Shown here: one piece after another, positions 42,708 to 61,914 of the stretch
Numbering within the stretch: the first letter of the stretch is position 1
Layout of the letters: each line of letters starts with the position of its first letter
Notes under the pieces: generated by a model
What the model was told of the DNA's origin: nothing
Databases searched by the model: none
The model's input: the letters and a program-made list of their open reading frames with translations, nothing else
Position numbers and translations under genes: made by a program
From: Burkholderiales bacterium UBA4657
GTDB lineage: Bacteria; Pseudomonadota; Gammaproteobacteria; Burkholderiales; Burkholderiaceae_E
Assembly (NCBI GenBank): GCA_002405475.1
Contig: DHLX01000023.1
Coordinates: 41,221 to 105,220, forward strand
Reading direction: 5' to 3'
DNA length: 64,000 nt

Positions 42708-42743
42708 TTTGCATCCATTCTTGTATACAAAATTGGATGCAAA
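42708..42743. promoter_or_regulatory. 36-bp nested palindrome, candidate GntR-type operator overlapping the allophanate hydrolase start codon
   Basis: TTTGCATCCA-ttc-TTGTATACAA-aat-TGGATGCAAA. The outer 10-bp arms are perfect and the central 10-mer is itself a perfect palindrome with a GT..AC core. Confidence 0.5.
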
Positions 42744-44449
42744 TGAGCACTGTTACATTTTCACAGACCCATTCTGATAATGCCTGGATCAAGCGTTTGA
42801 ACCCGGCGATTGAGTTGTCGACACCGGTTTCTAGCGTCAAGACTTTAGCACTGGCCGGGCTGAGCTTCGCCGTAAAGGACAATATTGATGTCGCTGGAGT
42901 GGCAACAACGGCGGCATGCCCCGACTTTGCCTATACACCGGCGTCTCATGCCACGGTTGTAGCGAATTTGCTGACCGCAGGCGCAAGTCTGCACGGCAAG
43001 ACCAATCTAGATCAGTTTGCCTGCGGCTTGAACGGAACGCGCTCACCCTACGGAGTTGTGCCGTGCGCGCTCGATCCCGACTATGTCAGTGGTGGCTCAA
43101 GCTCGGGTTCGGCCTATGTCGTCGCTACGGGGCAGGTCGATTTTTCACTGGGCACCGACACGGCCGGTTCGGGCCGTGTTCCCGCAGGTTTTAATAACAT
43201 TGTGGGCTTAAAACCATCCCGTGGGCTGATCAGTAATCATGGGGTTGTGCCAGCCGCTCGCAGTGTAGATTGTGTTTCAATTTTCGCGCGCGACGTCGTT
43301 ACTGCATGGCGCGCGTTTCAGGTTGCGGCCCAGTTCGATGCAAACGATCCGTATTCGAGAAGTCTCAAATTACGCCGTACTCCGTTCAGCAAAGGCTTTA
43401 GGCTAGGCATACCGCGCGATTGCGAATGGTTTGGCGATGCATTATCGGCCAAGGAATTTGAACGTGCTGTTGAGATGGCGAAGAAACTAGGCGCTGATGT
43501 GGTTGAAATAGATTTTTCACCATTCAGGTTAGTGGCAGATCTGCTCTATGGCTCAGCGCTTATCGCTGAACGTCTGGAAGTTCTGGAAGAATTTTTCGAG
43601 CGTACACCCGCTGCAGTAATTGAGCCAGTTTATTCTTTGCTATCACCAGGAAAACGATATACGGCAGTAGATGTCTTTCGTGCTATGACGCGCCTGAAAA
43701 CATTGAGCCAACAGGCGATGCAGTCCTGGGCAGACATGGATGTGTTAATGGTGCCGACGGCACCGACCCAGTACACGATAGCGCAAATGCAGGCTGATCC
43801 AATAGAGCTCAATCGCCGTCTTGGGTACTACACTAACTTTGTCAACTTGCTGGACTATGCCGCGATTGCAGTACCCAGCAGCATTCGTAGTGATGGCCTG
43901 GCGTTTGGTATTACCCTTATTGCAGCTGCAGGTTCTGATTGGTCATTGGCCGAGTTGGGTCTGCGCTACCACGAACAAACCGGGCTCAATCTGGGTGCTA
44001 CTTCTGAATCAGTCAAAAAAGCACAAATGCCGGAGCCACCAGCAATTGATACAGGATGGGTGCGCGTAGCTGTAGTGGGTGCACATTTATCTGGCATGCC
44101 ACTTAATTGGCAGCTGCGTCAATATGGTGCGCGGCTGTTGCAAGCGACTACTACAAGTAATTCCTATCGCCTCTATGCGCTCGCTAATACCCAGCCGAGG
44201 AAGCCTGGTTTGATACGCGTTGCTCCAGGGCATGGTGCGGAAATTGCGATTGAAATCTGGGCTTTACCCGTCGAGCATTATGGCGAGTTTGTTGCGCTCA
44301 TTCCCTCACCGCTTGGAATTGGACAGATCGACACGGCCGATGGTCAGCAGGTTCAAGGTTTTTTATGTGAGTCACAAGCCTTGGAGGGCGCGCAGGACAT
44401 CACTGACTTTAGAGGCTGGAAAAATTTTTTGAGCGCCGCTACGGCTTGA
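42737..44449 (+). CDS. atzF: allophanate hydrolase (amidase-signature N-domain plus AtzF-type C-domain)
   Basis: GGSSSGSA and GTDTAGSGRVPA amidase signature. C-terminal about 120 aa (VAVVGAHLSGMPLNWQL...GFLCE) is typical of allophanate hydrolase. Confidence 0.8.
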   Translation: MQMSTVTFSQTHSDNAWIKRLNPAIELSTPVSSVKTLALAGLSFAVKDNIDVAGVATTAACPDFAYTPASHATVVANLLTAGASLHGKTNLDQFACGLNGTRSPYGVVPCALDPDYVSGGSSSGSAYVVATGQVDFSLGTDTAGSGRVPAGFNNIVGLKPSRGLISNHGVVPAARSVDCVSIFARDVVTAWRAFQVAAQFDANDPYSRSLKLRRTPFSKGFRLGIPRDCEWFGDALSAKEFERAVEMAKKLGADVVEIDFSPFRLVADLLYGSALIAERLEVLEEFFERTPAAVIEPVYSLLSPGKRYTAVDVFRAMTRLKTLSQQAMQSWADMDVLMVPTAPTQYTIAQMQADPIELNRRLGYYTNFVNLLDYAAIAVPSSIRSDGLAFGITLIAAAGSDWSLAELGLRYHEQTGLNLGATSESVKKAQMPEPPAIDTGWVRVAVVGAHLSGMPLNWQLRQYGARLLQATTTSNSYRLYALANTQPRKPGLIRVAPGHGAEIAIEIWALPVEHYGEFVALIPSPLGIGQIDTADGQQVQGFLCESQALEGAQDITDFRGWKNFLSAATA

Positions 44450-44488
44450 TTCACTTTGTATAGATTCACTTACTGACAGGAGAGCATC

Positions 44489-45520
44489 ATGACTAAACCG
44501 ACTGAAATTCATTCTTCAACTAGCGATAAGAGAGAGTTAGCCTCGAGAGGACGGCGCCAGGTTCTGGCGGGCACGGTCGCTGGTGCCGTGACACTGGCTG
44601 CGCCTGCCATTGTGCGCGCTCAGTCATCACCAAAAATTCGAATTGGCTTTTGGCCAGTAGCGTCTGGCATCCCGTTTTATGCAGCGGTAGACAAGGGATT
44701 TTTCAAGCAGGCCGGTCTGGATGTCGAACCCGTTAAATTTGCCAGTCCGCAACAAGTGGCCGAGGCGATGCTGGCTGGACGACTTGAGGGTACCTCAAAT
44801 GGTACGGCTTCTGCCGCTTTGGGCATTGCCGAGCTGGCACAGCCAGGCTTGTTAAAAATATTCTGCACTAACCCGACCAATACCAGGTTTGTTCTTGACC
44901 AGTTTATAGTTGCCAAAGATAGTACCTTCAAGTCGGTTGCTGATTTGTCAGACAAGAAAGTGGGTTGTGGACCCGGTGTACAAAACGTCACTCTGGCTCG
45001 CACTATTCTTGAACGTGCTGGAGCTAAAAATTTCACCATCGTTGAATTGCCAATAGCGCAGCACGTTGCAGCGATTGTCGCCAACCAGGTCGATGCCTGC
45101 TATACGCTGGAACCTACTGGCACCATTGGTCGTTTAAATGGCACCACACGAAATCTGGAAGTGGGGGTCGTTGCCAGATATATATTGGGTGACCCGATGG
45201 CACCCTGGCACGGTGGTTCAGCCAGCTTGAGCACTGAATTCATCAAAAAATTCCCCGAGATCGTGCCACGCTATATCGCAGCCTATAAGCGTGGTGTCGA
45301 TCTGGTCAAAACCAATCCTGCCGAAGCTCGCCCCTCGCTTAAAGGTTACACCGCGATTGAAGGCGCGCTCACCAATGAAGTACCTATGGCCGACTATATG
45401 TTTTCAAATGAATTCAAGCCCAGCGATATAGCCGCGTTCCAAAGGTTTTTCGATCTGTTTGCAGAGAGAGGTATTTTCAGCAGACGTATTCTTATCGATT
45501 CCATTCTTTATAAGGGCTGA
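44489..45520 (+). CDS. ABC transporter substrate-binding protein (NitT/TauT, NMT1-like) with Tat signal
   Basis: SRGRRQVLAG...APAIVRAQ twin-arginine leader. NMT1/THI5-like body. Confidence 0.75.
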   Translation: MTKPTEIHSSTSDKRELASRGRRQVLAGTVAGAVTLAAPAIVRAQSSPKIRIGFWPVASGIPFYAAVDKGFFKQAGLDVEPVKFASPQQVAEAMLAGRLEGTSNGTASAALGIAELAQPGLLKIFCTNPTNTRFVLDQFIVAKDSTFKSVADLSDKKVGCGPGVQNVTLARTILERAGAKNFTIVELPIAQHVAAIVANQVDACYTLEPTGTIGRLNGTTRNLEVGVVARYILGDPMAPWHGGSASLSTEFIKKFPEIVPRYIAAYKRGVDLVKTNPAEARPSLKGYTAIEGALTNEVPMADYMFSNEFKPSDIAAFQRFFDLFAERGIFSRRILIDSILYKG

Positions 45521-45522
45521 CT

Positions 45523-46356
45523 ATGGCTTCGGAAGGTGTCAATAGCGGCGCATCTCTGCCTGCCAACGGTGTTCGATATGACGCCAAGCCGGCAGGCACA
45601 GCTTTCCAGGCGGCAAAATTATTACCGCTTCTGGGGCCGCTGGTTTTATTGCTCATTTGGGATATGGTGGTCAGAGCAGGGTTAATCAAAGCTATTTTGT
45701 TGCCACCACCGCTGGACACACTTTCGACCCTGTTATCGGGGATGGCTGGAGGTGCATTGCTGTATGACTTTTGGGTCACCTTGTATCGTACTCTTTGCGC
45801 CTTTGCCATTGCTGTCATCGCCGGAATGCCCCTGGGCATTTTGCTGGGCAGTAATGAGCGTGCTTACAGAAGTGTGGAGTTCCTGATCGATTTTTTCCGT
45901 AGCACTCCCGCCTCAGCATTGATTCCGCTGTTTCTATTGATTTTTGGTACTTCAGACATCAACAAGATCGCGATTGCTACTTTTGGAGCCTGGCTGCTGG
46001 TTGTGTTCAATTGTGCCTATGGTGTTATCAACGCACGTAAGCAGCGTATTGCTGCAGCCAAGGTTATGGGTGCATCACGTCGCCGTATTTTTGTTGATGT
46101 TCTGATCTGGGAAAGCTTGCAGGCTTCGTTTGTTGGTTTGCGTTCTGCCGTGTCCATGGCGCTGGTAATTGTGGTCGTGGCAGAAATGTTCATTGGCTCG
46201 GAAAGTGGGTTGGGACACAAAATTATTAATGCCCAGCAGGTTATGAATACCAAAATGATGTATGCCGCAATCATGTCGGCCGGTATTTTGGGGTACTTTT
46301 TGAATATTTTATTTTTATTACTTGAACGTCGTATAGTTCACTGGAGCGGTCGATGA
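45523..46356 (+). CDS. ABC transporter permease (NitT/TauT family)
   Basis: Six hydrophobic segments. EAA-like loop AKVMGASRRRIFVDVLIWESL. Confidence 0.8.
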   Translation: MASEGVNSGASLPANGVRYDAKPAGTAFQAAKLLPLLGPLVLLLIWDMVVRAGLIKAILLPPPLDTLSTLLSGMAGGALLYDFWVTLYRTLCAFAIAVIAGMPLGILLGSNERAYRSVEFLIDFFRSTPASALIPLFLLIFGTSDINKIAIATFGAWLLVVFNCAYGVINARKQRIAAAKVMGASRRRIFVDVLIWESLQASFVGLRSAVSMALVIVVVAEMFIGSESGLGHKIINAQQVMNTKMMYAAIMSAGILGYFLNILFLLLERRIVHWSGR

Positions 46357-47174
46357 CAACAGTACTCAACGCCCCGGTATTTGCTGACGTGCCCACGCCC
46401 CCGTTCCGTCCCGGGCCGCTGGGTACTCACATTACCATTCGTGGCCTGACCAAATATTTTGCTGGCTGGCCATTGTATGAAAATTTTGATCTCGATATTC
46501 CGAAGGGGAAAATTGTCTCGATTTTTGGGCCGAACGGTTGTGGCAAATCCACCCTCATTAATATGATTGCCGGGCTGATTCCAATTGACTCGGGAGAAAT
46601 TCTTTTCGATGGAAAGTCACTGAAAGAAACCACCATCGGCTACGTGTTTCAGAATTATCGCGAGGCACTGTTTCCATGGTGGAGAACCATTGACAATATT
46701 GCCTACCCGTTAAAGCTCATGGGAAAATCGAAGGCCGAGGTCGATCGGCGCGTGGCTGAACTGGTAGCGTCTTTCGACGTAAAATTCGACTTGAATCGAT
46801 ATCCCTACGAATTATCGGGGGGACAGCAGCAGACCGCGTCCATTATGCGCGCTCTGGCGCCCAACCCGGAAGTATTATTCCTGGACGAACCGTTTTCGGC
46901 GCTGGATTTTGAAATGACCTTGTTCATACGCGAGAAATTGCAGGAAGTTTTCATGAAAACGCACACCACCATGATGCTGGTGTCGCACGATCTGGAAGAA
47001 GCCGTCTATCTGGCGGATCAGGTATTGCTGCTGACCAAGCGGCCGACCTCGATTGCCGATATTTTGACGTATGATGACCCGAGGCCCCGAACAACAGCAA
47101 CCTTGTCCGAGCCCAGTTTTATTGCTACCAAGAAGAGGAGTCTGGAAATTTTCCAGCGAGAAGTCAGAAAATGA
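46353..47174 (+). CDS. ABC transporter ATP-binding protein
   Basis: Walker A GPNGCGKST, signature LSGGQQQ, Walker B LFLDEPFSALD. Confidence 0.9.
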   Translation: MTTVLNAPVFADVPTPPFRPGPLGTHITIRGLTKYFAGWPLYENFDLDIPKGKIVSIFGPNGCGKSTLINMIAGLIPIDSGEILFDGKSLKETTIGYVFQNYREALFPWWRTIDNIAYPLKLMGKSKAEVDRRVAELVASFDVKFDLNRYPYELSGGQQQTASIMRALAPNPEVLFLDEPFSALDFEMTLFIREKLQEVFMKTHTTMMLVSHDLEEAVYLADQVLLLTKRPTSIADILTYDDPRPRTTATLSEPSFIATKKRSLEIFQREVRK

Positions 47175-47875
47175 GTCTGGTCGAGAGTAAAAGCAACCGA
47201 AAAATTCTGGCGGAGGAAGCTTATGAACGCATCCGCTACGAACTATTCAACTTTTTACTCTTGCCCGGCGACCGTTTTACAGAACAGCAATTATGTGATC
47301 GGCTAAGTGTTTCACGTACTCCCGTGCGCCAGGCACTTTTCCGCTTGCAGCAGGAAGGCCATGTTGAAGTCTTGTTCAGAAATGGCTGGCGGGTATTGCC
47401 TATAGACTTCAAGAAATTTGATGCTCTGTATGATTTTCGTATTCTGATCGAAACCGAAGCGGCACAACGTTTATGCGAAGGTCGTATTAGTGGCGATATC
47501 GCGGTATCGAATCAGTTACTGCAGGAACTGGTCGATTTCTGGTTGGTACCGAAAGCTTCCCGAATTTACGATGCTCCAGCTGTCAGCAGGCAAGACGAAG
47601 AATTTCATTGCATGATCGTGGCCGCCGCTGGAAATCCGGTAATGCAAAACACCCACCGCGAAATAACCGAACGTATTCGTGTCATACGCAAACTTGACTT
47701 TACCTACCAGCCGCGAATCGACGCGACCTATGACGAACATGCACGAATTCTGAAAGCCATTCTCGATAAACGCAGCGAGCAGGCTCGTCTACTGCTCAAG
47801 GCGCATATCGAGTCGAGTCAGATTGAGGTGAGAAAACTAACACTGCACCAGTTACATCTGGCGCGTGAGATTTGA
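47171..47875 (+). CDS. GntR-family (FadR/FCD-type) transcriptional regulator
   Basis: N-terminal wHTH (LLPGDRFTEQQLCDRLSVSRTPVRQALFRLQQEGHV) plus a helical FCD-like C-domain. Overlaps the ATPase stop. Confidence 0.85.
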   Translation: MSLVESKSNRKILAEEAYERIRYELFNFLLLPGDRFTEQQLCDRLSVSRTPVRQALFRLQQEGHVEVLFRNGWRVLPIDFKKFDALYDFRILIETEAAQRLCEGRISGDIAVSNQLLQELVDFWLVPKASRIYDAPAVSRQDEEFHCMIVAAAGNPVMQNTHREITERIRVIRKLDFTYQPRIDATYDEHARILKAILDKRSEQARLLLKAHIESSQIEVRKLTLHQLHLAREI

Positions 47876-48016
47876 TCTCATCGACTTGCTTTTTTTCAGT
47901 ACTTGATACCGGTTTTTTGATTGCGTAGGTTGGTTCGACATTTTTGACAAAGCTTGCACTGGTCCAGAACCTGTGGCAACCTGCTTTTCATGCGATATTC
48001 CAGGTGCTAAATGTAA

Positions 48017-49279
48017 GTGAGTAATCAAAAAGTAATTGTTGTTGGTGCAGGCGTTATAGGTTGTGCTACGGCCTATTTGCTAGCGCGGCATGGATTTGCA
48101 GTAACGGTGATTGAAGCCGAACCTGGCCCCGGGTTAATGACCAGCTATGCCAATGGCGCGCAACTCAGCTATTCCTATGTCGAACCGCTGGCATCGCCGG
48201 CGACACTGAAAAAACTTCCTTCATTGCTGCTTGATCCTCAATCGCCACTGCGTTTCCGGGTGACAGGTGAATGGGCGCAGATAGTATGGGGTTTCAAATT
48301 TATTCGTGCCTGTACCCAAGCGCATGTCAAATTTGCTACCAAGGCTTTGTTAGGACTATCTTTTCTGAGTCGTAATGAGTTAGAGCTAGCAATCGAAAGA
48401 GACCGATTGTCTTTTGATTATTCACAACCTGGTAAATTGGTCATCTATAACACTCCAGAGGCTATTGAAGTAGCGAAAAAGCAAATGGAATTTCAGCGTA
48501 CGCTTGGTTGTCAACAAACGCTGTTAAGCACTCACGAATGTCTTGAGCGGGAACCTGCCCTGGAGAATTATCAATCGTATATGGCCGGCGGCGTATGGAC
48601 ACCGGGCGATGCGGTGGGTGATGCCAAAAAATTATGTGATGATCTGGTACGGCATAGTACAAGAATGGGTGCAACATTCCGGTATCTTTCCAATGTTGAA
48701 AATTTTATTGTTCAGCGTGATCGTATTCAAGCTGCTGTCCTTGAGTCAGGTGAGAGGCTTGAGGCAGACTATTTTGTGCTGGCGAGCGGTAACGGAGCTG
48801 CAAGTCTTGGGAAAAAATTAGGGCTATCGCTGCCAGTCTATCCACTGAAAGGCTATAGCCTTAGTTTGACCCTCAGGGCGCCTGCAAAGGCACCGCAAGT
48901 GAGTGTCACTGACCTCAGACGAAAAATTGTTTATGCTTGCCTCGGTAATAAACTGCGTGTTGCAGGCATGGCTGAGCTCGTGGGTTATGATTGGTCCGTC
49001 AGTGAAAAAAAGCTGCAGTTTTTAATGCAATGTACTGAAGAAACGTTTCCGGGTGCATGTGATTTTCATACAGATATCGCTCCCTGGGTTGGTCTGCGAC
49101 CCGTAACTCCAACTTCACTGCCCATGATTGGACCTGCCCGTTTTACCAATTTTTTGTTGAATGTGGGTCATGGTTCTTTGGGATTCACCCTGGCATTAGG
49201 GAGTGCTCGCCTGATAGTGGCTTATTTAAACAAGCAAACAGCTCTGATTGCTCAGCAAGGATGGAGTTTTAAACCTTGA
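48017..49279 (+). CDS. D-amino acid dehydrogenase-like FAD oxidoreductase
   Basis: GTG start. VIVVGAGVIGCATAYLLA dinucleotide fold. VYPLKGYSLSL, LRVAGMAELVGYD and GLRPVTP..P align by eye with E. coli DadA. Confidence 0.75.
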   Translation: MSNQKVIVVGAGVIGCATAYLLARHGFAVTVIEAEPGPGLMTSYANGAQLSYSYVEPLASPATLKKLPSLLLDPQSPLRFRVTGEWAQIVWGFKFIRACTQAHVKFATKALLGLSFLSRNELELAIERDRLSFDYSQPGKLVIYNTPEAIEVAKKQMEFQRTLGCQQTLLSTHECLEREPALENYQSYMAGGVWTPGDAVGDAKKLCDDLVRHSTRMGATFRYLSNVENFIVQRDRIQAAVLESGERLEADYFVLASGNGAASLGKKLGLSLPVYPLKGYSLSLTLRAPAKAPQVSVTDLRRKIVYACLGNKLRVAGMAELVGYDWSVSEKKLQFLMQCTEETFPGACDFHTDIAPWVGLRPVTPTSLPMIGPARFTNFLLNVGHGSLGFTLALGSARLIVAYLNKQTALIAQQGWSFKP

Positions 49280-49347
49280 AAACACCACTGCCTTCATTTG
49301 TGGCAAGCTCTGACTGTCTGATATCTGATGGAAATGGTTGATTATTG

Positions 49348-50895
49348 ATGAACCTGCTTAAAGCCCTGGCCACGGTCAGCGGCCTGACTCTGTTATCCCG
49401 CATTTCTGGTCTGGTCAGGGACTTGCTTGTAGCACGCTACTTCGGTGCCTCGGGAGCGACCGACGCTTTTTTCCTGGCTTTCAGCCTGCCTAATTTATTA
49501 CGTCGCCTGTTCGCCGAGGGCGCTTTTTCCCAGGCATTTGTGCCGATACTGGGTGAGTATAAAAATTCACGTGGCGAGGAGCAAACCCGCATCCTGGTCG
49601 ATTATGTTGCCACGCTCCTGTTCTGGATTTTGATGCTCGTCACTGCCATAGGCGTGATAGCTGCTCCCCTCATCATTTATATTGTCGCCCCTGGGTTTGC
49701 TGATGAACCCGAGCGCTTTTCTCTCGCGGTACAGATGCTGCGCATTATGTGGCCGTACATATTGCTGATTTCTCTGGTTGCCTTTGCTGGCGGTATCTTG
49801 AATACCTATAGTCGTTTTTCTATTCCGGCGTTTACCCCGGTTTTGTTAAACCTTAGTTTTATTGTTGCCATGCTTGGATTCGCACATTTTTTTCACCCAC
49901 CTATCTATGTGCTGGCCTGGGCGGTATTGGCAGGGGGCGTTGCACAGTTGTTATTGCAGTGGTCGGCATTAAAGCGTATCGGCAAGTTGCCCCGAATTCG
50001 CTGGAATTTGCGTCGTGCCTGGGCAGACGAGGGCGTGAAGCGCATTTTGCGACAGATGGGTCCGGCGGTGCTGGGGGTCTCGGTAGCGCAAATTTCGCTG
50101 GTGATTAACCGGATTTTTCAGTCATTTCTGGAAACCGGCTCAATTTCCTGGTTGTTTTATGCCGATCGATTAATGGAATTCCCGACCGCATTGCTAGGTG
50201 TCGCACTAGGGACCATACTGCTGCCGTTTTTGACTAAAGCTCATGCACAACAAGATCAGTCGTCTTATAACGAATTACTGGACTGGGGCTTACGTCTGAC
50301 TTTTTTATTGGCACTACCTGCCTCGGTCGCTTTGGCAGTATTGTCACTACCTCTTATTGCTACCCTGTTTCAGCATGGCCAGTTTTCTGCCCGCGATACC
50401 ATCATGAGTGCTCAAGCCTTGACTGCTTATGCGCTAGGCCTGCTGGGTTTGATCAGTGTCAAGGTATTGGCCCCGGCTTTTTATGCCAAGCAGGACATCA
50501 AGACACCAGTAAAAATTGCGGTGCTGGTTCTGATGCTGACCCAGTTAATGAATCTGGCGTTTATAGGCTGGCTCAAGCATGCTGGCCTGGCTCTGTCCAT
50601 TTCGCTCGCCGCTTGTATCAATGCAGCGCTGCTTTATGCGGGACTGAGGAAACGGGGCATCTATCTGCCTGCACCAGGCTGGGCATGGTTTTTATTTAAA
50701 CTACTGGTAGCTTTGGCCGTGTTCGGCGCGGCGTTGTACTGGGCGCAATCGCTGGTACCGTGGCTGCAACTGGTAGCACAGCCACTACAGCGTGCATTTT
50801 TTCTCGGACTCATAGTGATAGGCGGCGCGTTGTTATATTTCACGCTACTGTTTATGCTAGGGTTCAGGTTAAAGGACTTTAGACGCCGAGCATGA
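49348..50895 (+). CDS. murJ: lipid II flippase MurJ
   Basis: MNLLKALATVSGLTLLSRISGLVRD...FFLAFSLPNLLRRLFAEGAFSQAFVP is typical MurJ/MviN. 14 TM-like segments. Confidence 0.9.
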   Translation: MNLLKALATVSGLTLLSRISGLVRDLLVARYFGASGATDAFFLAFSLPNLLRRLFAEGAFSQAFVPILGEYKNSRGEEQTRILVDYVATLLFWILMLVTAIGVIAAPLIIYIVAPGFADEPERFSLAVQMLRIMWPYILLISLVAFAGGILNTYSRFSIPAFTPVLLNLSFIVAMLGFAHFFHPPIYVLAWAVLAGGVAQLLLQWSALKRIGKLPRIRWNLRRAWADEGVKRILRQMGPAVLGVSVAQISLVINRIFQSFLETGSISWLFYADRLMEFPTALLGVALGTILLPFLTKAHAQQDQSSYNELLDWGLRLTFLLALPASVALAVLSLPLIATLFQHGQFSARDTIMSAQALTAYALGLLGLISVKVLAPAFYAKQDIKTPVKIAVLVLMLTQLMNLAFIGWLKHAGLALSISLAACINAALLYAGLRKRGIYLPAPGWAWFLFKLLVALAVFGAALYWAQSLVPWLQLVAQPLQRAFFLGLIVIGGALLYFTLLFMLGFRLKDFRRRA

Positions 50896-51731
50896 CTGCC
50901 ATGACCTCTGCACTGGCTTACTGGGAAACGCTGGTTCGTGAAGACGAGCACCTGCCCCTGTTTGAGGCAGCTTTATCCATAGCCCAGGATGAATACCCCG
51001 AAGTCGATTTGCAGCAGATATTGTCTAGTATTGACGAAATGGCGGCACGCCTGAAAGCACGCTTTGCTGCTGATGCACCTCTGGCGCACAAACTGCGCTT
51101 GCTGAATCATTTTTTCTTCAATGAACTGCATTTTCGCGCCAACGTTAACGATTATTACGATACCGACAACAGTTATCTCAATCGTGTTCTGGAGCGTCGC
51201 TGCGGTATACCCATTACCTTGTCGGCCATGTATATGGAAATTGGCCAACAGGCTGGTTTGCCCCTGAAAGGCATTGCTTTCCCGGGGCATTTTCTGGTGA
51301 AAATGCGGCTGGGGGAGGGCACTGTCATCATGGATGTATTTGAAGGCGGGAAATCTCTGTCGCGCGAAGAACTGGAACAGCGTCTGGAACCTTACCTGGC
51401 TGAACAAAATGTTGCTGCACGCGAGGTACTCCCACTGTTTCTTGAAACCGCTAGTGCGCGACACATTCTGGCTCGCATGTTGCATAACCTTAAAGGTATA
51501 TATCGGGCCGATCAGGACTATTCACGTTTATTGCCCGTACTTCAGCGTTTGGTGGTTTTGCTGCCCGAACATCCGGTCGAGCGGCGTGATCGGGGTTTGT
51601 GCTATGCCGAACTGGACTGTCCGCGTGCTGCCATGGAAGATTTGCAGGCCTATCTGGCCATGGACCCGCAAGCCCCCGATGCAGAAAGCGTACGCGAACG
51701 CATGGCCGACCTGGAAAAACAAATTAACTAA
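50892..51731 (+). CDS. SirB1-like transglutaminase/TPR family protein
   Basis: NDYYDTDNSYLNRVLERRCGIPITLSAMYMEIGQQAGLPLKGIAFPGHFLV is typical of SirB1/YchA. ATGA overlap with murJ. Confidence 0.75.
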   Translation: MTAMTSALAYWETLVREDEHLPLFEAALSIAQDEYPEVDLQQILSSIDEMAARLKARFAADAPLAHKLRLLNHFFFNELHFRANVNDYYDTDNSYLNRVLERRCGIPITLSAMYMEIGQQAGLPLKGIAFPGHFLVKMRLGEGTVIMDVFEGGKSLSREELEQRLEPYLAEQNVAAREVLPLFLETASARHILARMLHNLKGIYRADQDYSRLLPVLQRLVVLLPEHPVERRDRGLCYAELDCPRAAMEDLQAYLAMDPQAPDAESVRERMADLEKQIN

Positions 51732-51735
51732 TCCT

Positions 51736-51759
51736 GGTCATTTCGGCTGCATGCGTATG
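51736..51759. repeat. left copy of the 24-bp perfect direct repeat GGTCATTTCGGCTGCATGCGTATG
   Basis: Identical to 56567-56590. It duplicates the last codons and stop of the SDR gene. Confidence 0.95.
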
Positions 51760-51836
51760 ATGCTGCGGTATTTCGCCAATTCTGTGACAGATAACACCAG
51801 ACAAGCGTATGTCGGTTGTGGATTAGCTGATTATGA

Positions 51837-54371
51837 CTAGATTGACTCCTGGTGCGTTTCAAGTAGAGTTAGCTGTCCGTTATCATAGCGAACACGTTGA
51901 CCTGGTAATAGGCGTGGGGGATCTGGCACTACCGCAGAGGGTTTGTGTAGCTCGCGTAGCAGAGTGGCGCCGTGCGATAAGCGTCCGCCCATGCGCACCA
52001 CAACGGCTAAGGCCTGCTGGTACTGGGCATGACATCCTGGGTCTAGAGTGTCTTCTAATAAAATATCGGTGCCTACTACGCCTTCTGCACTACCAGGGTA
52101 AATGACAAAGCTTGTAGCGATTTCACTACCCTTGCTGTGCCCGTCTTGCCAAAAGCTACCTTGTTGAGTGCGTGCATCGGGGTGTGGGGCAAACCAGTGG
52201 GCGCGGTCTGTATTGGGCATCGCATGGTGTAATCGCAAAAAGATTCGCATGAGGTTATCGCGGTACCATTCCCGCACCTGCACGCAGTATCCGCGCATAC
52301 CTGGCAGGCCTAGGAGCCAGGCCCAGCGCACTGCTATGGGCCAAACTGGGAAGTTTTGCAGCGGCATGGCGATGGGCGTGCTGGGACGTGGCGTGGCAGG
52401 ATCGCTCTCCCAGGGCAGGCGGTGTAGAGCTTGATGCAGGTCTTGGTAGGCAGTGGCGGGCTGGCCCCACACGCTGCCACCACTGCTGGCTAGAGCCGTG
52501 GCTATGCACAAATTGCCCTGCACCACGAACACATAAAACCGCACCAGCCAGTCGGCCAACCTCTGTCCGCTGGCATCTTGTTGATGTAGTTGGGCCAGTT
52601 CAGCATCCCACTCGGCTAAGGCGGTAGACAAGTTCAACAGTGCCTTGCGGCTCTGGGTCTGCATGCGCCATAGCAGGGGCAGGTTACACAATAGTCGCCA
52701 GGGTCGCCAGGGCAGAGCTGGTACGCTGCCACCTACCTCGTGGGCATAGCGGCGGGTGGGCATGCCCCAGTCGGCCAGCCGAGCTAAAAACAAGTCGTTG
52801 TTAATGTACGAGGCATTGGCAAACAAGGCGGTAAAAGGCTCGTTGTCCTGTAGCACCCGGGTATCCCAGCGAGCCATGATGGCGGGTATGCTGCCTGCTG
52901 CACGGCGTTGGGCATATTCAATCAGGCGGCTGGGTTGGGGTGGCAGTATTTCGGCCACATTGGCTGCTGTTAAATGCCGGCGCCAGCCATACCCGCTGAT
53001 GGGACGGTATTGCAGCAACCATAGTTGCTTACCATCCCAGGCCCATTCTACATCGCCATGTACATAGTGAAAGGTGTGCAACACGGACTGTAGAAACTGC
53101 CAGAGTGTTTGCGCGCTCAGCCCTGCTTGAGTGGGGAACTGGCCTTCGTTCCAGTCACCGCCCAAACGTGATAATACAGCGCGTTGTGGCGTACATTGGC
53201 CATTGGCCAGGACTTCAAGATGGCCTTGCGCCCATTCTATTTCCACTGCCAAGTGGCGCACAAAGGCTATGCCAGACAGCACAGGGGTTACAAAGCGTTG
53301 AACTACCACCTCGCCCGCAAGCTGAGCCAACAACTGATGTACTTTGTTTGGTACATCAGATGCTGATACGCGTAAAAAGGTGGTACTCAGGCCTGAGTTG
53401 GCGGCATCGGCTTGGTCTTCTGTGAGGTTGGATGAACGTACGGCCCAGAGGGCAGCGGGCTGCTGTGCCAACAAAGCAGGCAGGCGTGGATCTTGTGGAT
53501 GCGTCACGTTAATGGCAGGTGGCACGGGTAGATCTGCCATTAGCGCCAGTTGCAGGCGGCCACCTTTGCTGTGGGCGGTGATGGTGTCACTTGTGCTGCT
53601 GCAAGCTTTCGTGTCTCCCTCCAGCCATGCCACAGTGTCTGCGGGGTGGTCTATCCAGGGGTAGTGACCCCAGTGCTTGTGCAAGGTGACGGTTAATTGT
53701 GCCCGCGCCAGTACGGCCGACCATGCCGCTGCTTGGCGCATATCTAGCACGGCATCACGCCCGCCCCATACCAGTTCTATTGGGTCAGTGATCCATTCGA
53801 GCAAGGGCAGTGCCGTGTCGGGGCGCACCATGTCCCATAGTGGCAAAAAGGCACGGCAGCGCGCGTAGCCTTGACCCATGCGTTGGTACTGTGCGGGATT
53901 CCATCGTTGTGATGAAAACTGACGTGCAAACCAAGCGGGCTGATGAGACAGTAGCGCATGCACCAAGGTACGCACCGGGCGGGGAGCCATCAGCGCAGGC
54001 AGACGGCGTTGCCATAAATACACGCCTACCGGGGCCAGCAACACGGTACGGGCGAAGTGTCCAGGCTTTTTTTGCAGCGCATGCAGCACAACCAAAGCAT
54101 TCACGCCTACTGCAAAAATAGCTTGTCCAGGCAGCGTTGTGGCCAGCAAAGCATCGGCAAAATGACTTAGGCTGTGGCAAGGTGGTGCGGGGTTGCTGCC
54201 GTAGCCGGGTAGTTCAATAGGTACTGGGTAGTAGTGTGCAAAGTGAGGGAGAGCATCGTCCCACCAGTTAGCTGCGCTGCCATTGCCAGCCAGCAGGTAC
54301 ATCAGGGGGCGGGGCATTGGCGGTGTCACACCAGGTTTTGTAGTGCTGCCCGTAGTGTCGGATAGCGCCAT
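51837..54371 (-). CDS. fusion protein: degenerate alpha/beta-hydrolase domain + PEP/pyruvate-binding ATP-grasp + C-terminal PEP-utilising His-swivel domain
   Basis: WAVRSSNLTEDQADAANSGLSTTF (PPDK_N-like). C-terminal GSAEGVV...VVVRMGGRLSHGATLLRELHKPSAVV (mobile-domain His). N-terminal hydrolase-like fold with AVGVNALVV where GxSxG is expected. The start is uncertain (54371 or 54317). Confidence 0.7.
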   Translation of the reverse strand: MALSDTTGSTTKPGVTPPMPRPLMYLLAGNGSAANWWDDALPHFAHYYPVPIELPGYGSNPAPPCHSLSHFADALLATTLPGQAIFAVGVNALVVLHALQKKPGHFARTVLLAPVGVYLWQRRLPALMAPRPVRTLVHALLSHQPAWFARQFSSQRWNPAQYQRMGQGYARCRAFLPLWDMVRPDTALPLLEWITDPIELVWGGRDAVLDMRQAAAWSAVLARAQLTVTLHKHWGHYPWIDHPADTVAWLEGDTKACSSTSDTITAHSKGGRLQLALMADLPVPPAINVTHPQDPRLPALLAQQPAALWAVRSSNLTEDQADAANSGLSTTFLRVSASDVPNKVHQLLAQLAGEVVVQRFVTPVLSGIAFVRHLAVEIEWAQGHLEVLANGQCTPQRAVLSRLGGDWNEGQFPTQAGLSAQTLWQFLQSVLHTFHYVHGDVEWAWDGKQLWLLQYRPISGYGWRRHLTAANVAEILPPQPSRLIEYAQRRAAGSIPAIMARWDTRVLQDNEPFTALFANASYINNDLFLARLADWGMPTRRYAHEVGGSVPALPWRPWRLLCNLPLLWRMQTQSRKALLNLSTALAEWDAELAQLHQQDASGQRLADWLVRFYVFVVQGNLCIATALASSGGSVWGQPATAYQDLHQALHRLPWESDPATPRPSTPIAMPLQNFPVWPIAVRWAWLLGLPGMRGYCVQVREWYRDNLMRIFLRLHHAMPNTDRAHWFAPHPDARTQQGSFWQDGHSKGSEIATSFVIYPGSAEGVVGTDILLEDTLDPGCHAQYQQALAVVVRMGGRLSHGATLLRELHKPSAVVPDPPRLLPGQRVRYDNGQLTLLETHQESI

Positions 54372-55768
54372 TTAAAGTGCGCGTCCAGCAGGCGTTGCGG
54401 TACAGCTTTTTGCCCATCGACAAAAATTTGCGCCATCTCACCTGCTAGCCAGCGTATAGCAGTTGCAGGAATGTGCAGCCACACAGGGCGGTGCAGTAGT
54501 TGCCCTACGGTAGTGGCAAAGGTGCTCTGTGTAACGCATTCGGGGGCTACAGTGTTGTACGCGCCTTGCATATCGGGCCGTACCAATGCTTGAGCAATGA
54601 TAGCCAATACGTCTTCACGGTGAATCCAGGCCATGACCTGTTGCCCGCTACCGAGTCGACCACCCAGACCTAACCGGTGCGGTAGCAGCATGGGGGGTAA
54701 CGCTCCACCTGGACCTAGCACCATGCCGAGGCGTAGCACTACTTGGCGTATGCCTAGCATGGTGGCTTGGGCAGCGGCTTGTTCCCATTGCATGCATAAC
54801 TCGGTCATAAAACCTTGGCCGGGTGCGCTTTGTTCAGTCAGAGTTTCTTCAGGTGAGCGCACGCCGTAGACCCCAATACCCGATGCTTGTATCCACACAG
54901 TGGGTTTGTGTTGCGTGCGCTGTGCCCATTGCAGCAGTTGGTCGGTGGTGTGTAGCCGACTATCGAGCAGGCGCTTTTTTTGCCGCTGTGTCCAAGGCAT
55001 GCCTACCACGCGGGCACCTGCCAGATTCACTACAGCATCAAACGTGTCGTCGGGGTGTAAATGGTTCAGCGTGTATATGCAGCGCGCACGGCCTGCAAAC
55101 AAAAAAGCAGCGTTTAAAGGTTGGCGTGTGAGTACCGTGACCTGGTGGCCTGCGTCCAGCAGCTGTTGCACCAGGGCTTCGCCAATAAAGCCGGTGCCGC
55201 CCGTGACCAAGACTCGCTGGTGCGGCATTTGAGTAAAGGGGTTGAGGGCAGGTACTTGACGTGCTAGGCGCAGCGCAGCGAGGCCGTCGCGCACTCCCGA
55301 AGCGGCCACACCCACGGCAAACAGGCTTAATACCCAGCCACGCCAACCGAGGTCTATGGCTACCAGGGCGGTAGGCAAACTGGCCCATTGGGCTAGTTGC
55401 ACCCCATACAGCCCAAACAGAGCACCCCCATTGATCGCCAGCACCGTGTGTAGCACGCGTTCCGTGATGGGTAGCTTACGGCTGTTGTCCTCTACAATAA
55501 AGTCCCACAAAGTCAGTCCCACTTCGATCAGTACTACCGCTGCTAACACCCAGGCCCACAGCCCGTGAAACTGCAAGTGTGCTATGCCGGCAAATAGCGC
55601 CCCGTACAGTATGGCACGTACCGCATGTATGACAAGTTCTAGCCGCGCATTATGGCGCTGAGGCAGAGCGACAGTCATTTCGTGGTGGTAGAGGGTATCA
55701 AAAGCCCCCATGAGTCCCTGGGCAATCAGCAGGGCAATGGCAATATCTAGTATGGCAATTTCAGTCAT
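54326..55768 (-). CDS. membrane-anchored SDR39U1/YfcH-like (TIGR01777, DUF1731) NAD-dependent epimerase-family protein
   Basis: About 170 aa N-terminal multi-TM domain, then RVLVTGGTGFIGEALVQQLLDAGHQVTVLTR and C-terminal ...GQKAVPQRLLDAHFKWRYPTLRAAL, typical of the DUF1731 tail. Confidence 0.7.
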   Translation of the reverse strand: MTEIAILDIAIALLIAQGLMGAFDTLYHHEMTVALPQRHNARLELVIHAVRAILYGALFAGIAHLQFHGLWAWVLAAVVLIEVGLTLWDFIVEDNSRKLPITERVLHTVLAINGGALFGLYGVQLAQWASLPTALVAIDLGWRGWVLSLFAVGVAASGVRDGLAALRLARQVPALNPFTQMPHQRVLVTGGTGFIGEALVQQLLDAGHQVTVLTRQPLNAAFLFAGRARCIYTLNHLHPDDTFDAVVNLAGARVVGMPWTQRQKKRLLDSRLHTTDQLLQWAQRTQHKPTVWIQASGIGVYGVRSPEETLTEQSAPGQGFMTELCMQWEQAAAQATMLGIRQVVLRLGMVLGPGGALPPMLLPHRLGLGGRLGSGQQVMAWIHREDVLAIIAQALVRPDMQGAYNTVAPECVTQSTFATTVGQLLHRPVWLHIPATAIRWLAGEMAQIFVDGQKAVPQRLLDAHFKWRYPTLRAALQNLV

Positions 55769-56219
55769 GGTTATGAAGGTGTTGTTGGTCGTGCTTGTAG
55801 AGCCAGACTAATGGTGGCAGCATGCTGGCAAGTGCTAGCGCGTCTACCCAAACGTGGCTCCAAACACCGGCTTGAGCCGAAATTATCATGTCTTGCGGTG
55901 CCCACAGCACTAGGCCGGCCATCAGCCAGAGCCATACTTGAGGCATGCGAGTGAGGTTGCCTAGGTGTACCAGAGCAAGCATCCAAACGGCAAGGCACTG
56001 TATGGTGGCACCAAATAGCGCCATCCACCAGGCATTATTGACTCTGGCGTGTGGCGCGGGTGTCGTGTCCCAAAATGCAGTTACCAAGCTTTGGTGATAG
56101 GCATCGAGCCAAGGACCGTTTCCCCCTAGAACCAGACCTATGCCTACAAGGCCGTGGCATAAAGCGGCTGCGTACATCCAGCGTACGACCCATATGCGGA
56201 TGAGTGATGTGCGGTTCAT
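55761..56219 (-). CDS. Trp-rich four-helix membrane protein (hypothetical)
   Basis: 152 aa with four hydrophobic segments. An 8-nt overlap with the downstream gene suggests co-translation. Confidence 0.55.
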   Translation of the reverse strand: MNRTSLIRIWVVRWMYAAALCHGLVGIGLVLGGNGPWLDAYHQSLVTAFWDTTPAPHARVNNAWWMALFGATIQCLAVWMLALVHLGNLTRMPQVWLWLMAGLVLWAPQDMIISAQAGVWSHVWVDALALASMLPPLVWLYKHDQQHLHNHD

Positions 56220-56566: not shown

Positions 56567-56590
56567 GGTCATTTCGGCTGCATGCGTATG
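56567..56590. repeat. right copy of the 24-bp perfect direct repeat
   Basis: Identical to 51736-51759. Contains the stop codon (56569-56571) and the ...IRMQPK codons of the SDR gene. Confidence 0.95.
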
Positions 56591-57327
56591 GCACCGTCGA
56601 GCCGTATCGATTCGCCGTTCAACATGGGGTTGACGATAATCTGTTCAGCCAGCAGGGCGTATTCCTCAGGCTTGCCGAGCCGTGGCGGAAACGGCACCAT
56701 GGCGCCAAGTGCCTGTTGTACTTCTTTGGGCATGCCCAGCAGCATGGGCGTTTCAAAAATGCCTGGGGCTATGGTCATGACGCGAATACCATGACGTGAC
56801 AGGTCACGCGCCATCGGCAGGGTCATGCTGACGATTCCGCCTTTGGAAGCGGCATAAGCGGCTTGCCCCATTTGCCCATCGTAGGCGGCGACCGAGGCGG
56901 TCATGATAATGACGCCGCGCTCACCATCGCTATTCGGCGTATTGCCCTGCATGGCCTGGGCGGCCAGGCGTGCCATATTGAAGGTGCCGAGCAGATTGAT
57001 ACGTAGTGTTTTATCGAACAGATCGAGCGCATGGGCGCCATCACGCCCGATGGTTTTGCTGGCAGGGGCAATGCCGGCGCAATTGACAAGTATTTCTAGT
57101 GATCCGAGTGCCAGGCAGGCCTGTACCGCCGCTTGGGCGCTATCTTCGCGCGTGACGTCGCAAAGAATGAAGCGTCCCGAAATCTCTTGTGCCAGAGCGT
57201 TCCCGGCCTCCTGATTCAGGTCGGCAATAACGACTTTGGCGCCCAATGCTGACAAGCGCCGTGCGGTCGCCGCACCCAGCCCCGAGGCACCGCCGCTAAT
57301 CAAGGCCACACTGTTTTGAATATTCAT
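56569..57327 (-). CDS. 3-hydroxyacyl-CoA dehydrogenase type II-like short-chain dehydrogenase
   Basis: Start [18 protein letters not shown], with GGAGAA upstream. YAASKGG catalytic motif. The C-terminus ...[12 protein letters not shown] matches the HSD10-type ending. Confidence 0.85.
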
Positions 57328-57340
57328 ACGAGTTCTCCAT

Positions 57341-57366
57341 AAAAAAAGCGGTGAGAGCATCACCGC
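57341..57366 (-). terminator. rho-independent terminator downstream of hppA
   Basis: On the minus strand: GCGGTGA-TGCTC-TCACCGC followed by TTTTTTT. Confidence 0.7.
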
Positions 57367-57389
57367 TTAGTCATTAACAATCTTGTGTG

Positions 57390-59591
57390 TTATTTGTTGG
57401 CTGGGGCCGTTTCGGTCGAGACTGGCGCGGGCGCAGGTGCTACCGCTGGCGCCGACAAGGTGCTTGACATCGACATGCCTGGCGGGGTGCTGGGCACCAC
57501 CGGAGCGGGCGCCTGGCTGGCGTAGAGTGAGCCTAAAATCGGCACCATCAACAAGGCCACCAGGTTGATGATTTTGATCAGGGGATTCACCGCCGGACCG
57601 GCCGTGTCTTTGTACGGGTCACCCACGGTGTCGCCCGTCACTGCGGCTTTATGCGCATCGCTGCCTTTGCCACCATGATGACCTTCTTCAATATATTTTT
57701 TGGCATTGTCCCAGGCACCGCCCCCGGTCGTCATCGAGATGGCGACAAACAGGCCGGTAATGATGGTGCCCATGAGCAGCCCGCCGAGTGCAGCCGGGCC
57801 GAGTACCACGCCGACGATAATGGGAACAATGACCGGAAGTAAGGAGGGAATCATCATTTCCTTGATGGCGGCCGTGGTCAGCATGTCTACCGCTTTACCG
57901 TATTCCGGCTTGGCCGTGCCTTCCATAATGCCTGGTATCTCGCGGAACTGACGCCGCACTTCTTCCACCACGCTGCCAGCCGCGCGACCGACGGCTTCCA
58001 TGGCCATGGCACCGAACAGGAACGGTATTAGGCCGCCAATAAACAGGCCGACGATGACCATGGGGTCCGACAGGTTGAAACTGGTGCTGATATTGACCGC
58101 TTTTAGTGCCTCGTTATAGTCAGCAAACAGTACCAGGGCTGCCAGACCGGCAGAGCCGATGGCATAACCTTTGGTCACGGCTTTGGTGGTATTGCCTACC
58201 GCGTCGAGCGGGTCGGTCACCGCACGCACGCTGTCGGGCAGTTCGCTCATTTCGGCAATGCCGCCAGCGTTATCGGTAATGGGGCCGTAGGCGTCCAGTG
58301 CCACGATAATGCCGGTCATGGACAGCATGGCTGTAGCGGCAATGGCGATACCGTACAGGCCATAAGTACCCCCACCCATGACATAAAACGAAGCCAGAAT
58401 GGCAGCACACACGGCCAGTACTGGTAAGGCGCAGGCTTTCATTGAGACCGCAATACCGGCAATGATGTTGGTGGCATGTCCGGTGCGTGAGGCTTCAGCC
58501 ACGTATTTCACGGGTTTGAAGTCGGTACCGGTGTAATACTCGGTAATCCAGACCATGGCGGCGGTCAGAACAATGCCGACCACGGCGGCCCAGTACAGTT
58601 TCATGGGGGTAACGGCACCACCGGTGGCTTGTGTCACGCCGCCCATAATCCACTGGGTTACGGGGTAGAACAGCACGAGTGAAATAACACCCGCGACGAT
58701 CAGGCCGCGATAGAGCGCGTTCATGATCTTGCCGCCTTCGCGTGCCTTGACGAAATAGCAGCCGACGATAGAAGCCAGGATCGAGACACCACCCAACGCT
58801 AAAGGATAGACCACGGCTTGCGCCCCATATCCGGCAAAGGCCAAAGCACCCACGAGCATGGTGGCCACGACCGTGACGGCGTAGGTTTCAAACAGGTCAG
58901 CCGCCATACCAGCACAATCACCGACGTTATCACCCACGTTGTCAGCAATGACGGCTGGATTGCGCGGGTCGTCTTCAGGAATACCGGCTTCGACTTTACC
59001 GACCAGGTCAGCGCCGACGTCGGCGCCCTTGGTGAAAATGCCACCACCCAGACGGGCAAAAATGGAAATGAGCGAGGAGCCGAAGGCCAGGCCGATCATG
59101 GGGTGCAGCAAATCACGCAGGCTGCCCGACGGGTGACCTATTTTGAGCAGCACGGCATAAAACCCGGCGACACCCAACAGCCCCAGACCGACCACCAGCA
59201 TGCCGGTAATGGCGCCGCCACGGAAGGCAATTTCCAGTGCGGCATTAATACCCCGGGTTGCGGCTTGTGCAGTACGCACGTTGGCGCGTACTGAAACATT
59301 CATGCCAATATAACCGGCCAGCCCGGACAATACCGCACCTAGGGCAAATCCGAGCGCGGTGGACCAGCCTAATTGCGGCACGAAGCCAATGATGAGAAAC
59401 AATACGACACCCACCAGCCCAATGGTGCGGTACTGACGGTTCAGGTACGCCTGCGCGCCTTGTTGAACAGCGGCAGCAATTTCCTGCATACGTGCATTAC
59501 CGGCTTCCTGCTTCAAAATCCAGCGGGTCCAGATTGCGCCAAAAAATACTGCGATTGCGCCGCAGATAAGCGCGAGTAACAACCCTGACAT
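57390..59591 (-). CDS. hppA: membrane-bound H+-translocating pyrophosphatase, K+-independent type
   Basis: 733 aa. [28 protein letters not shown] and [16 protein letters not shown] (Lys in GNTTKA indicates the K+-independent class). Pro/Ala-rich C-terminal tail. Confidence 0.95.
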
Positions 59592-59738
59592 CTTGGTCTC
59601 CTTGGTTAATTTGCTTGCGTAATCAACTGCTTGGGTAAAATTGAATGCCCGGCTGAAGACATAACAGCTATCTTTGCAGGGTCTTGTCGTACAGCACTGC
59701 GAATATGCAGCAGTCCGCCTGGTCTGGCAAGATTTTTG

Positions 59739-61914
<2,176 letters not shown>

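Follow-up and report, generated by a model that had tools for sequence, protein, structure and literature searches.

A putative rifampicin phosphotransferase-type dikinase fused to a conserved alpha/beta-hydrolase-fold domain without a nucleophile in Burkholderiales bacterium UBA4657

The minus strand of a 64-kb stretch of DNA from Burkholderiales bacterium UBA4657 (contig DHLX01000023.1; the whole stretch is called the window below) carries three co-directional genes that overlap or abut each other. The first two encode a multi-pass membrane protein and a short-chain dehydrogenase/reductase (SDR). The last one, which is the subject of this study, is read as an unbroken open reading frame (ORF) of 844 codons plus stop, and its product joins an alpha/beta-hydrolase-like domain to a dikinase of the rifampicin phosphotransferase (RPH) type. 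Read from its ATG, the reported ORF (54317-54371 region, minus strand) shares 46 nt with the SDR gene upstream of it. The codon of Met19 (window position 54317) lies 8 nt past the stop of that SDR gene and coincides with the N-termini of homologs, and the members of the 90% identity cluster are mostly 826 aa long. Because these observations fit together, the true start is probably Met19, 18 codons into the reported ORF, which would give a product of 826 aa; residue numbers nevertheless follow the 844-aa ORF throughout. In base composition the three genes are like their neighbours, and the operon thus shows no sign of recent transfer.

A preliminary description of this ORF, made from the sequence alone, had proposed three parts: an alpha/beta-hydrolase-like domain without its serine, an ATP-grasp domain and a C-terminal swivel carrying a phospho-histidine. 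Profile searches, structure prediction and structure comparison all agreed with this architecture. Pfam recognized the PPDK_N (34.6 bits, gathering threshold 27) and PEP-utilizers (28.0 bits, gathering threshold 23.1) domains above threshold. Hydrolase_4 remained below its cut-off in a single-sequence search (15.6 bits), and the other single-sequence matches to alpha/beta proteins were to BioH (E 9e-7, residues 24-125) and to PDB entry 6i8w (E 4.7e-6). When a profile of the family's N-terminal domain was compared with the PDB, 6i8w was matched at E 8.8e-24 and 250 alpha/beta hydrolases at E<=1e-3. Weak on the single sequence, the alpha/beta-hydrolase fold is unambiguous at the level of the family.

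From 66 family sequences, AlphaFold2 gave a confident model (pLDDT 82.4, pTM 0.83) with an alpha/beta domain up to residue ~252, a beta-rich ATP-grasp domain (~266-460), a helical domain (~482-726) and a C-terminal beta/alpha domain (755-836). Most blocks of the N-terminal domain had a pLDDT of ~80-95, with a dip to 68-73 at residues 111-130. In Foldseek searches of the PDB, the top matches were all structures of the Listeria enzyme RPH-Lm (5hv1, 5hv2, 5hv3, 5fbs and 5fbt, E 8e-13 to 1e-9), with an alignment spanning ~800 columns; alpha/beta hydrolases came next, matched on the N-terminal domain with a target-normalised TM-score (TMt) of 0.52-0.74. A profile of the kinase part, to which 28 kinase-only relatives were added, also matched RPH-Lm best (E 4e-59), through the ATP-grasp domain, the C-terminal half of the substrate domain and the swivel. 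PEP synthases ranked second and were matched through the ATP-grasp and swivel domains only. Neither the Pfam search nor the AlphaFold2 model revealed a C-terminal PEP/pyruvate TIM barrel, and the swivel His sits 44 residues from the C-terminus. The domain order is therefore that of RPH rather than that of PEP synthase, as had been suggested from the sequence. The NCBIfam models for PEP synthase, BioH, PigC/RedH and the RPH equivalog gave partial matches, far below threshold.

The catalytic residues of RPH-Lm are known. The ATP phosphates are held in place by K22, R117 and T136 and the Mg2+ is coordinated by E297; R666 and E667 form, with K670, the second phosphotransfer site, and H825 is the phosphate carrier; mutagenesis showed that K22, R117, T136, R666, E667 and H825 matter (Stogios et al., PMC4844700). 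In the profile alignment, K22, R117, T136 and E297 fall on K269, R312, T331 and E442, while R666, E667, K670 and H825 fall on R700, E701, R704 and H800. All eight positions are invariant or nearly so across the family, and their codons were verified in the window. R312 and T331 belong to the ATP-grasp peptide WAVRSSNLTEDQADAANSGLSTTF (residues 309-332) and H800 to the swivel peptide MGGRLSHGATLLRELHKPSAVV (794-815). Moreover, a middle-domain motif, HRxxxExDxxxxR (650-662: H650-R651-x3-E655-x-D657-x4-R662), is invariant and aligns with GMRCAGEIDLTKTRW of RPH. The protein thus has the phosphate-positioning residues of the ATP-grasp domain, the near-C-terminal swivel His and the R-E-x-x-K/R apex that characterize RPH-type dikinases. 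Because the residues proven by mutagenesis in RPH-Lm have conserved counterparts, we infer that the dikinase half is intact and would be active through the established two-site swivel mechanism.

The protein and RPH (RPH-Lm, PDB 5FBS/5HV1) share the order ATP-grasp, helical substrate domain, C-terminal His-swivel. They differ in several respects: the protein has an additional N-terminal alpha/beta-fold domain, its ATP-grasp domain is ~95 residues shorter, the N-terminal half of its substrate domain cannot be aligned by sequence, and it scores 16.8 bits against the NCBIfam equivalog RIF_Ptrans_rph (NF041857), the cut-off of which is 999, so that it does not belong to the rifampin phosphotransferases proper. 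Rifampin is not established as its substrate. The two-component phenolic dikinases PpsAB (phenylphosphate synthase), CreHI and HpeHI are also RPH-like and use a His-swivel mechanism, but their machinery is split between polypeptides (PMC12167813), with the ATP-grasp domain separated from the swivel and substrate domains. Here, in contrast, the kinase is a single chain, the additional and separable partner is the alpha/beta-fold protein, and no aromatic-catabolism genes were found near the fusion gene. The prodiginine-condensing enzymes PigC, RedH and HapC belong to the same superfamily and provide an example in which the machinery activates a metabolite rather than inactivating it; however, they have no alpha/beta partner, their NCBIfam models gave 13.7-19.1 bits against cut-offs of 1300-1350, and no pigment cluster accompanies the fusion gene.

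We next consider the N-terminal domain. The nucleophile elbow was located by three approaches. In profile alignments the catalytic Ser of 6i8w (GNSMGG), 4opm (GHSLGG) and 8ynv (GWSMGG) falls on Gly89; distantly fused and stand-alone relatives read G-H-G-I-G-G-S where canonical enzymes have G-H-S-x-G-G, and this motif aligns without gap with A87-V88-G89-V90-N91-A92; in the AlphaFold2 model, residue 88 is the last of the strand and the helix begins with residue 91. Since the three agree, Gly89 is taken as the elbow residue. We compared the pocket in 158 sequences from several phyla (120 stand-alone, 7 distantly fused and 31 closely fused), and the elbow position was Gly in all 158, in place of the Ser, Cys or Asp of canonical alpha/beta hydrolases. 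The absence of a serine in the peptide FAVGVNALVV (86-95), seen in the preliminary description, is therefore conserved. That description had read the change as Ser to Asn, which was off by two residues (Asn91 instead of Gly89), and the Asn itself is not conserved: position 91 is Asn in 86, Ser in 32 and Gly in 3 of 121 members of the close family. A Ser at this position would restore no nucleophile because it is Nu+2, and position 90 is Val or Ile, leaving no conserved nucleophile at either residue. Ser93, suggested by the stand-alone motif GHGIGGS, was also considered as an alternative nucleophile and rejected, as the fused family has Leu there.

The other members of the triad are in place. 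The late histidine of the peptide GHYPWIDHP (235-243), already noted in the preliminary description, is His236, an invariant residue that profile alignment places on the catalytic His of 6i8w and other hydrolases, and residue 206 is Asp or Glu in 158/158 sequences. Also invariant are the G29-N30-G31 loop, Tyr169, Pro238, Trp202 and Gly203; Arg122 is found in 157/158 sequences and Cys172 in ~80%. By profile, the closest solved relatives of the domain are the lipid-ester hydrolases PlaF (6i8w), ABHD6 and BioH, with which it shares the fold, the acid and His positions and an HG-type loop. Alpha/beta-fold proteins with a substituted nucleophile are also among the closest known systems. The domain differs in having an invariant Gly where the elbow Ser would be (A-V-G-V-N-A in this protein, G-H-G-I-G-G-S in its relatives) and by the clade-specific Arg122, Tyr169 and motif xAPVGxxLxxRxxPxLM. 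Judged from these alignments, the domain is part of a distinct alpha/beta-fold clade predicted to have lost covalent catalysis and kept a highly conserved pocket. Because His236, Asp/Glu206, Tyr169, the Gly-Asn-Gly loop and Arg122 stay conserved across phyla, the domain does not seem to be decaying; it resembles a functional active site or ligand site more than the plain binding module that the preliminary description had offered as a candidate.

Table 1. Positions in the window of the fusion gene, its predicted domains and key residues, and the two upstream genes of the operon
Feature	Position	Strand	Basis
ORF as reported, 844 aa + stop	51837..54371	-	reading-frame inspection
Likely true coding sequence from Met19, 826 aa	51837..54317	-	homolog N-termini, cluster lengths
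Alpha/beta-hydrolase-fold domain without nucleophile, residues 19-252	53616..54317	-	profiles, model, Foldseek
Gly89, nucleophile-elbow residue, 158/158 compared sequences	54105..54107	-	profile and multiple alignment, model
Asp206, acid of former triad (Asp or Glu in all)	53754..53756	-	multiple alignment
His236 (GHYPWID), invariant catalytic-type histidine	53664..53666	-	alignment to 6i8w and others
Compact ATP-grasp nucleotide-binding domain, residues 266-460	52992..53576	-	Pfam, profile alignment to RPH-Lm
Helical middle domain, residues 461-750, corresponding to the domain that binds rifampin in RPH	52122..52991	-	model, Foldseek, profile
R700-E701-W-Y-R704, counterpart of the second phosphotransfer site	52260..52274	-	alignment to RPH-Lm R666/E667/K670
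C-terminal His-swivel (PEP-utilizers mobile) domain, residues 751-838	51858..52121	-	Pfam, model, profile
His800 in GGRLSHG, predicted phospho-carrier, aligned with RPH-Lm His825	51972..51974	-	profile alignment
Operon gene 1, 152-aa multi-pass membrane protein	55761..56219	-	no Pfam or NCBIfam match
Operon gene 2, 480-aa TIGR01777 (YfcH-type, Epimerase+DUF1731) SDR	54326..55768	-	family model

The fusion is widespread. More than 120 non-redundant full-length homologs with the same architecture (61-99% identity) were found in Pseudomonas (syringae, viridiflava, fluorescens, chlororaphis and protegens groups), in the Burkholderia cepacia complex and in Bordetella, Achromobacter and Rhodoferax, and when one genome was scanned for each species, at least 214 species genomes encoded the fusion. 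An exhaustive search of representative sequences yielded only about four 50% clusters of the 810-840-aa type, together with a more distant fused set of 909-1128 aa with the same order of alpha/beta, PPDK_N and PEP-utilizers domains, many kinase-only proteins of ~620-800 aa and stand-alone hydrolase-like proteins of ~250 aa. In Euzebya tangerina, a Rubrobacteraceae metagenome-assembled genome (MAG) and an Anaerolineae MAG, the stand-alone hydrolase-like gene lies directly upstream of a stand-alone RPH-like dikinase gene. A fourth contig carries the hydrolase-like gene and a kinase gene called as split ORFs, and a Bacteroidota contig has the hydrolase-like gene without a kinase.

The linkage was quantified in 80 metagenome loci, 60 of which were informative, with at least 600 nt downstream. 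A same-strand dikinase gene followed, at -27 to +310 nt, in 56 of these 60; the two genes were separate in 70 of the 80 loci and fused in 4. In the window, therefore, a module that is widespread as two or three genes occurs in fused form. Since other phyla have the same two parts as neighbouring genes, it is very probable that both halves cooperate on a small molecule. The third gene appears outside Proteobacteria: an AhpC-TSA_2 thioredoxin-fold gene (peroxiredoxin-like-2 type) was directly upstream of the Gly-elbow alpha/beta gene in 35 of the 67 loci with room for it (for example locus L088, 6621-10378, and locus L089, 7421-8774), and its product has a CxxC wherever the N-terminus is complete. 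In one protein of 1128 aa (P0137), AhpC-TSA_2, the alpha/beta domain and the dikinase form a single chain.

Some stand-alone modules lie beside light-related genes (L088, 1-6323; L087, 930-12028), which encode a B12-binding MerR regulator, a DNA photolyase, lycopene-cyclase-like and amine-oxidase/desaturase-like proteins and ECF sigma factors. A photolyase gene was present within 5 kb in 5 of the 80 metagenome loci, and in two named contigs. A link of the module to photo-oxidative stress might be considered as a weak lead.

All together, with a probability of roughly 60%, we propose that the protein is a soluble two-module enzyme in which an RPH-type small-molecule dikinase is combined with a non-nucleophilic alpha/beta-fold module. 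By homology to RPH, there is a strong case that ATP would bind the compact ATP-grasp domain of the kinase module (residues ~266-838) and that His800 would attack the beta-phosphate, with release of AMP; pyrophosphoryl-His800 would then become phosphoryl-His800 by loss of the gamma-phosphate as Pi. The swivel would carry the phosphate to the apex of the helical domain, R700/E701/R704, and transfer it to a hydroxyl of the bound small molecule. The Gly-elbow module (residues 19-252) may, with moderate confidence, bind the substrate or the phosphorylated product, or convert it non-covalently. Indeed, since Gly replaces the nucleophile, this module is predicted to be unable to form an acyl-enzyme; the candidate chemistries are of the general-base or anion-site type and would involve His236-Asp206, Arg122, Tyr169, the elbow and the oxyanion-type Gly-Asn-Gly loop.

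As to the substrate, for which the preliminary description had proposed a small molecule or lipid, gene context hints at a hydrophobic or membrane-associated, redox- or thiol-linked small molecule: redox chemistry because two different CxxC-type partners occur in two lineages (AhpC-TSA_2 and, as described below, DCC1-like), a hydrophobic substrate because of the membrane protein and the membrane-anchored SDR. Several points weigh against the proposal as a whole. Single-sequence scores are modest for all three domains, the N-terminal half of the middle domain has no significant sequence alignment to RPH, and Pfam Rph_4th gave no match to the 844-aa protein. Moreover, neither the membrane protein nor the SDR accompanies the fusion gene in Burkholderia, so that they are not obligatory partners, and the redox and lipid aspect is taken from gene neighbourhood alone.

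Two other explanations are contradicted by the domain content and the distribution. An error of assembly or sequencing could have merged two genes into the long ORF, as the preliminary description had allowed, and the unusual architecture is the one feature that might suggest it; with the same single ORF in more than 120 non-redundant proteins and in 214 species genomes, complete chromosomes among them, this is refuted and has practically no chance of being correct. The names given in sequence sources, 'pimeloyl-ACP methyl ester carboxylesterase' and 'PEP-utilizing enzyme', would imply an esterase of the BioH type or a role in central metabolism as a PEP synthase or PPDK. These names have weak partial model matches in their favour, and the ATP-grasp and swivel domains are indeed homologous to those of PEP synthase and PPDK. 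However, the latter have a central swivel and a C-terminal PEP/pyruvate TIM barrel, both absent here, and the PEP synthase models reached at most 37 bits against cut-offs of 598-1063 (598 for the best one). Similarly, BioH scored 28.8 bits against a cut-off of 206.95, over residues 24-125 only, and a Gly at the elbow leaves no Ser nucleophile for esterase chemistry. Both identities are refuted by the domain content, and we regard them as extremely improbable.

The remaining alternatives concern the role of the two modules. The alpha/beta domain might be a non-catalytic sensor or scaffold that gates the dikinase through signal binding or oligomerisation and leaves its substrate untouched, by analogy to the alpha/beta-hydrolase receptors KAI2/D14 or to RsbQ. 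The elbow has no nucleophile, KAI2-like proteins (0.67-0.74) have among the highest TMt of the Foldseek matches listed, with D14 at 0.68, and the occurrence of both stand-alone and fused forms is what a regulatory partner would show. However, KAI2, D14 and RsbQ keep their Ser, whereas the Gly is invariant here; the conservation of His, Asp/Glu, Arg, Tyr and Asn across phyla is typical of a catalytic or anion-binding site; and tight, often overlapping gene pairs fit subunits of one enzyme equally well. We thus find a sensor or scaffold unlikely, although it deserves consideration. A xenobiotic or antibiotic resistance kinase like RPH, which would phosphorylate and thereby inactivate an environmental toxin captured with the help of the alpha/beta domain, appears still less plausible. 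It would account for the RPH homology with all catalytic residues conserved, for the soil and plant-associated Pseudomonas and Burkholderia hosts and for the AraC, MarR and TetR regulators found near the fusion gene in some genomes, but the score against RIF_Ptrans_rph is far from its cut-off, the gene is chromosomal, with a composition like its neighbours and no mobile-element linkage in most contexts, and SDR, membrane-protein and thioredoxin-fold partners are atypical of drug-modifying enzymes.

The two-module dikinase that we favour could also be placed in a broader and distinctly speculative scheme, which we think has a small chance of being correct. A Gly-elbow alpha/beta protein, an RPH-like dikinase and a CxxC protein (AhpC-TSA_2 or DCC1-like) might form a hitherto unrecognised three-step pathway present across phyla, joined in Proteobacteria by the membrane protein and the TIGR01777 SDR. 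Its target might be an oxidised membrane-soluble compound, for example a lipid or quinone hydroperoxide or alcohol, that would be reduced, then phosphorylated on the resulting hydroxyl at the expense of ATP, and finally subjected to elimination or displacement of the phosphate at the His-Asp/Arg/Tyr site, without covalent intermediate. If true, such a pathway would be a repair or detoxification route in which phosphorylation creates a leaving group.

To our knowledge, RPH-type dikinases are known from few functions only: rifamycin resistance, phenol and hydroxyphenylethanone catabolism, and prodiginine condensation. A search of the literature on the fusion, on DUF1731/YfcH/TIGR01777 and on a connection with photolyase or singlet oxygen yielded background on RPH and HpeHI but no paper about the family itself, and we found no Pfam or NCBIfam model, source name or paper that assigns it a function. 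Indeed, source names are generic (alpha/beta hydrolase, PEP-utilizing enzyme, pimeloyl-ACP methyl ester carboxylesterase), in line with the earlier impression that the family had not been described. The kinase machinery itself is known; what is new is its obligate pairing with a conserved non-nucleophilic alpha/beta protein, and the associated partners. This defines a large and phylogenetically broad RPH-type branch tied to a distinctive alpha/beta-fold protein that kept the rest of its active site. Characterising the branch would provide a new substrate class and possibly a new type of alpha/beta-fold reaction, and would correct hundreds of misleading annotations, the carboxylesterase and PEP-utilizing names of the fusion as well as the 'cell division protein' label of the membrane partner. 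Tractable hosts (Pseudomonas protegens, P. chlororaphis, P. syringae and the Burkholderia cepacia complex), the pairing rule and the conserved residues make the question testable.

The survey of gene neighbourhoods found the membrane protein and the SDR as recurrent neighbours, besides the dikinase and AhpC-TSA_2 linkage in other phyla. Among 85 loci, 72 encode the membrane protein immediately before either the fusion gene or the SDR gene, and 53 have the TIGR01777 SDR upstream; the P. syringae group has the membrane protein only, without SDR. The SDR of the window carries an N-terminal transmembrane extension of ~180 aa that matches no family model and contains the His-rich motifs DTLYHHE, ELVIHAVR and ERVLHTVL. 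Orthologs of the P. fluorescens group (~305 aa) have no transmembrane domain, and some lineages keep it. The 152-aa membrane protein has a conserved LWAPQD motif; the NCBI label 'cell division protein/inhibitor' attached to its homologs looks like an unsupported carry-over.

In Burkholderia contaminans, a homolog of this membrane protein and a DCC1-like thiol-disulfide oxidoreductase form one chain (P0460), which is encoded beside a TIGR01777 SDR in a separate cluster (locus L174, 8126-12921) that has no alpha/beta::dikinase gene. The cluster encodes MarR, Epimerase+DoxX_3, DUF2269, the DCC1-like::membrane protein, Epimerase+DUF1731 (499 aa) and GST, which suggests that the membrane protein and the SDR are a module of their own. 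A DCC1-like gene stands in front of the trio in the closest relative whose gene context differs. Such an occasional DCC1-like gene is the only recurrent neighbour beyond the membrane protein and the SDR: the wider neighbourhoods in Pseudomonas, Rhodoferax-like and metagenome contigs contained no further conserved partner, and their flanks vary. A scan of the operon for promoters and terminators gave counts no higher than in shuffled sequence.

The flanking genes of the window, some identified by Pfam and the rest read from their translations, have no evident functional tie to the operon. On one side (42737-51731, plus strand) are a 570-aa amidase-like gene, a probable ABC transporter and regulator, a DAO-type FAD oxidoreductase, MurJ and a SirB1-like transglutaminase/TPR protein; on the other (56569-61914, minus strand) are a classical SDR, a membrane H+-pyrophosphatase and adenylate kinase-like and glycerol kinase-like genes. 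Two ORFs look spurious: one of 168 aa (51334-51840, plus strand), which shares sequence with the SirB1-like gene at the 3' end of the latter and extends as far as the fusion gene's stop, and one of 399 aa with a TTG start (62531-63730, minus strand), the translation of which is odd and looks to be of low complexity.

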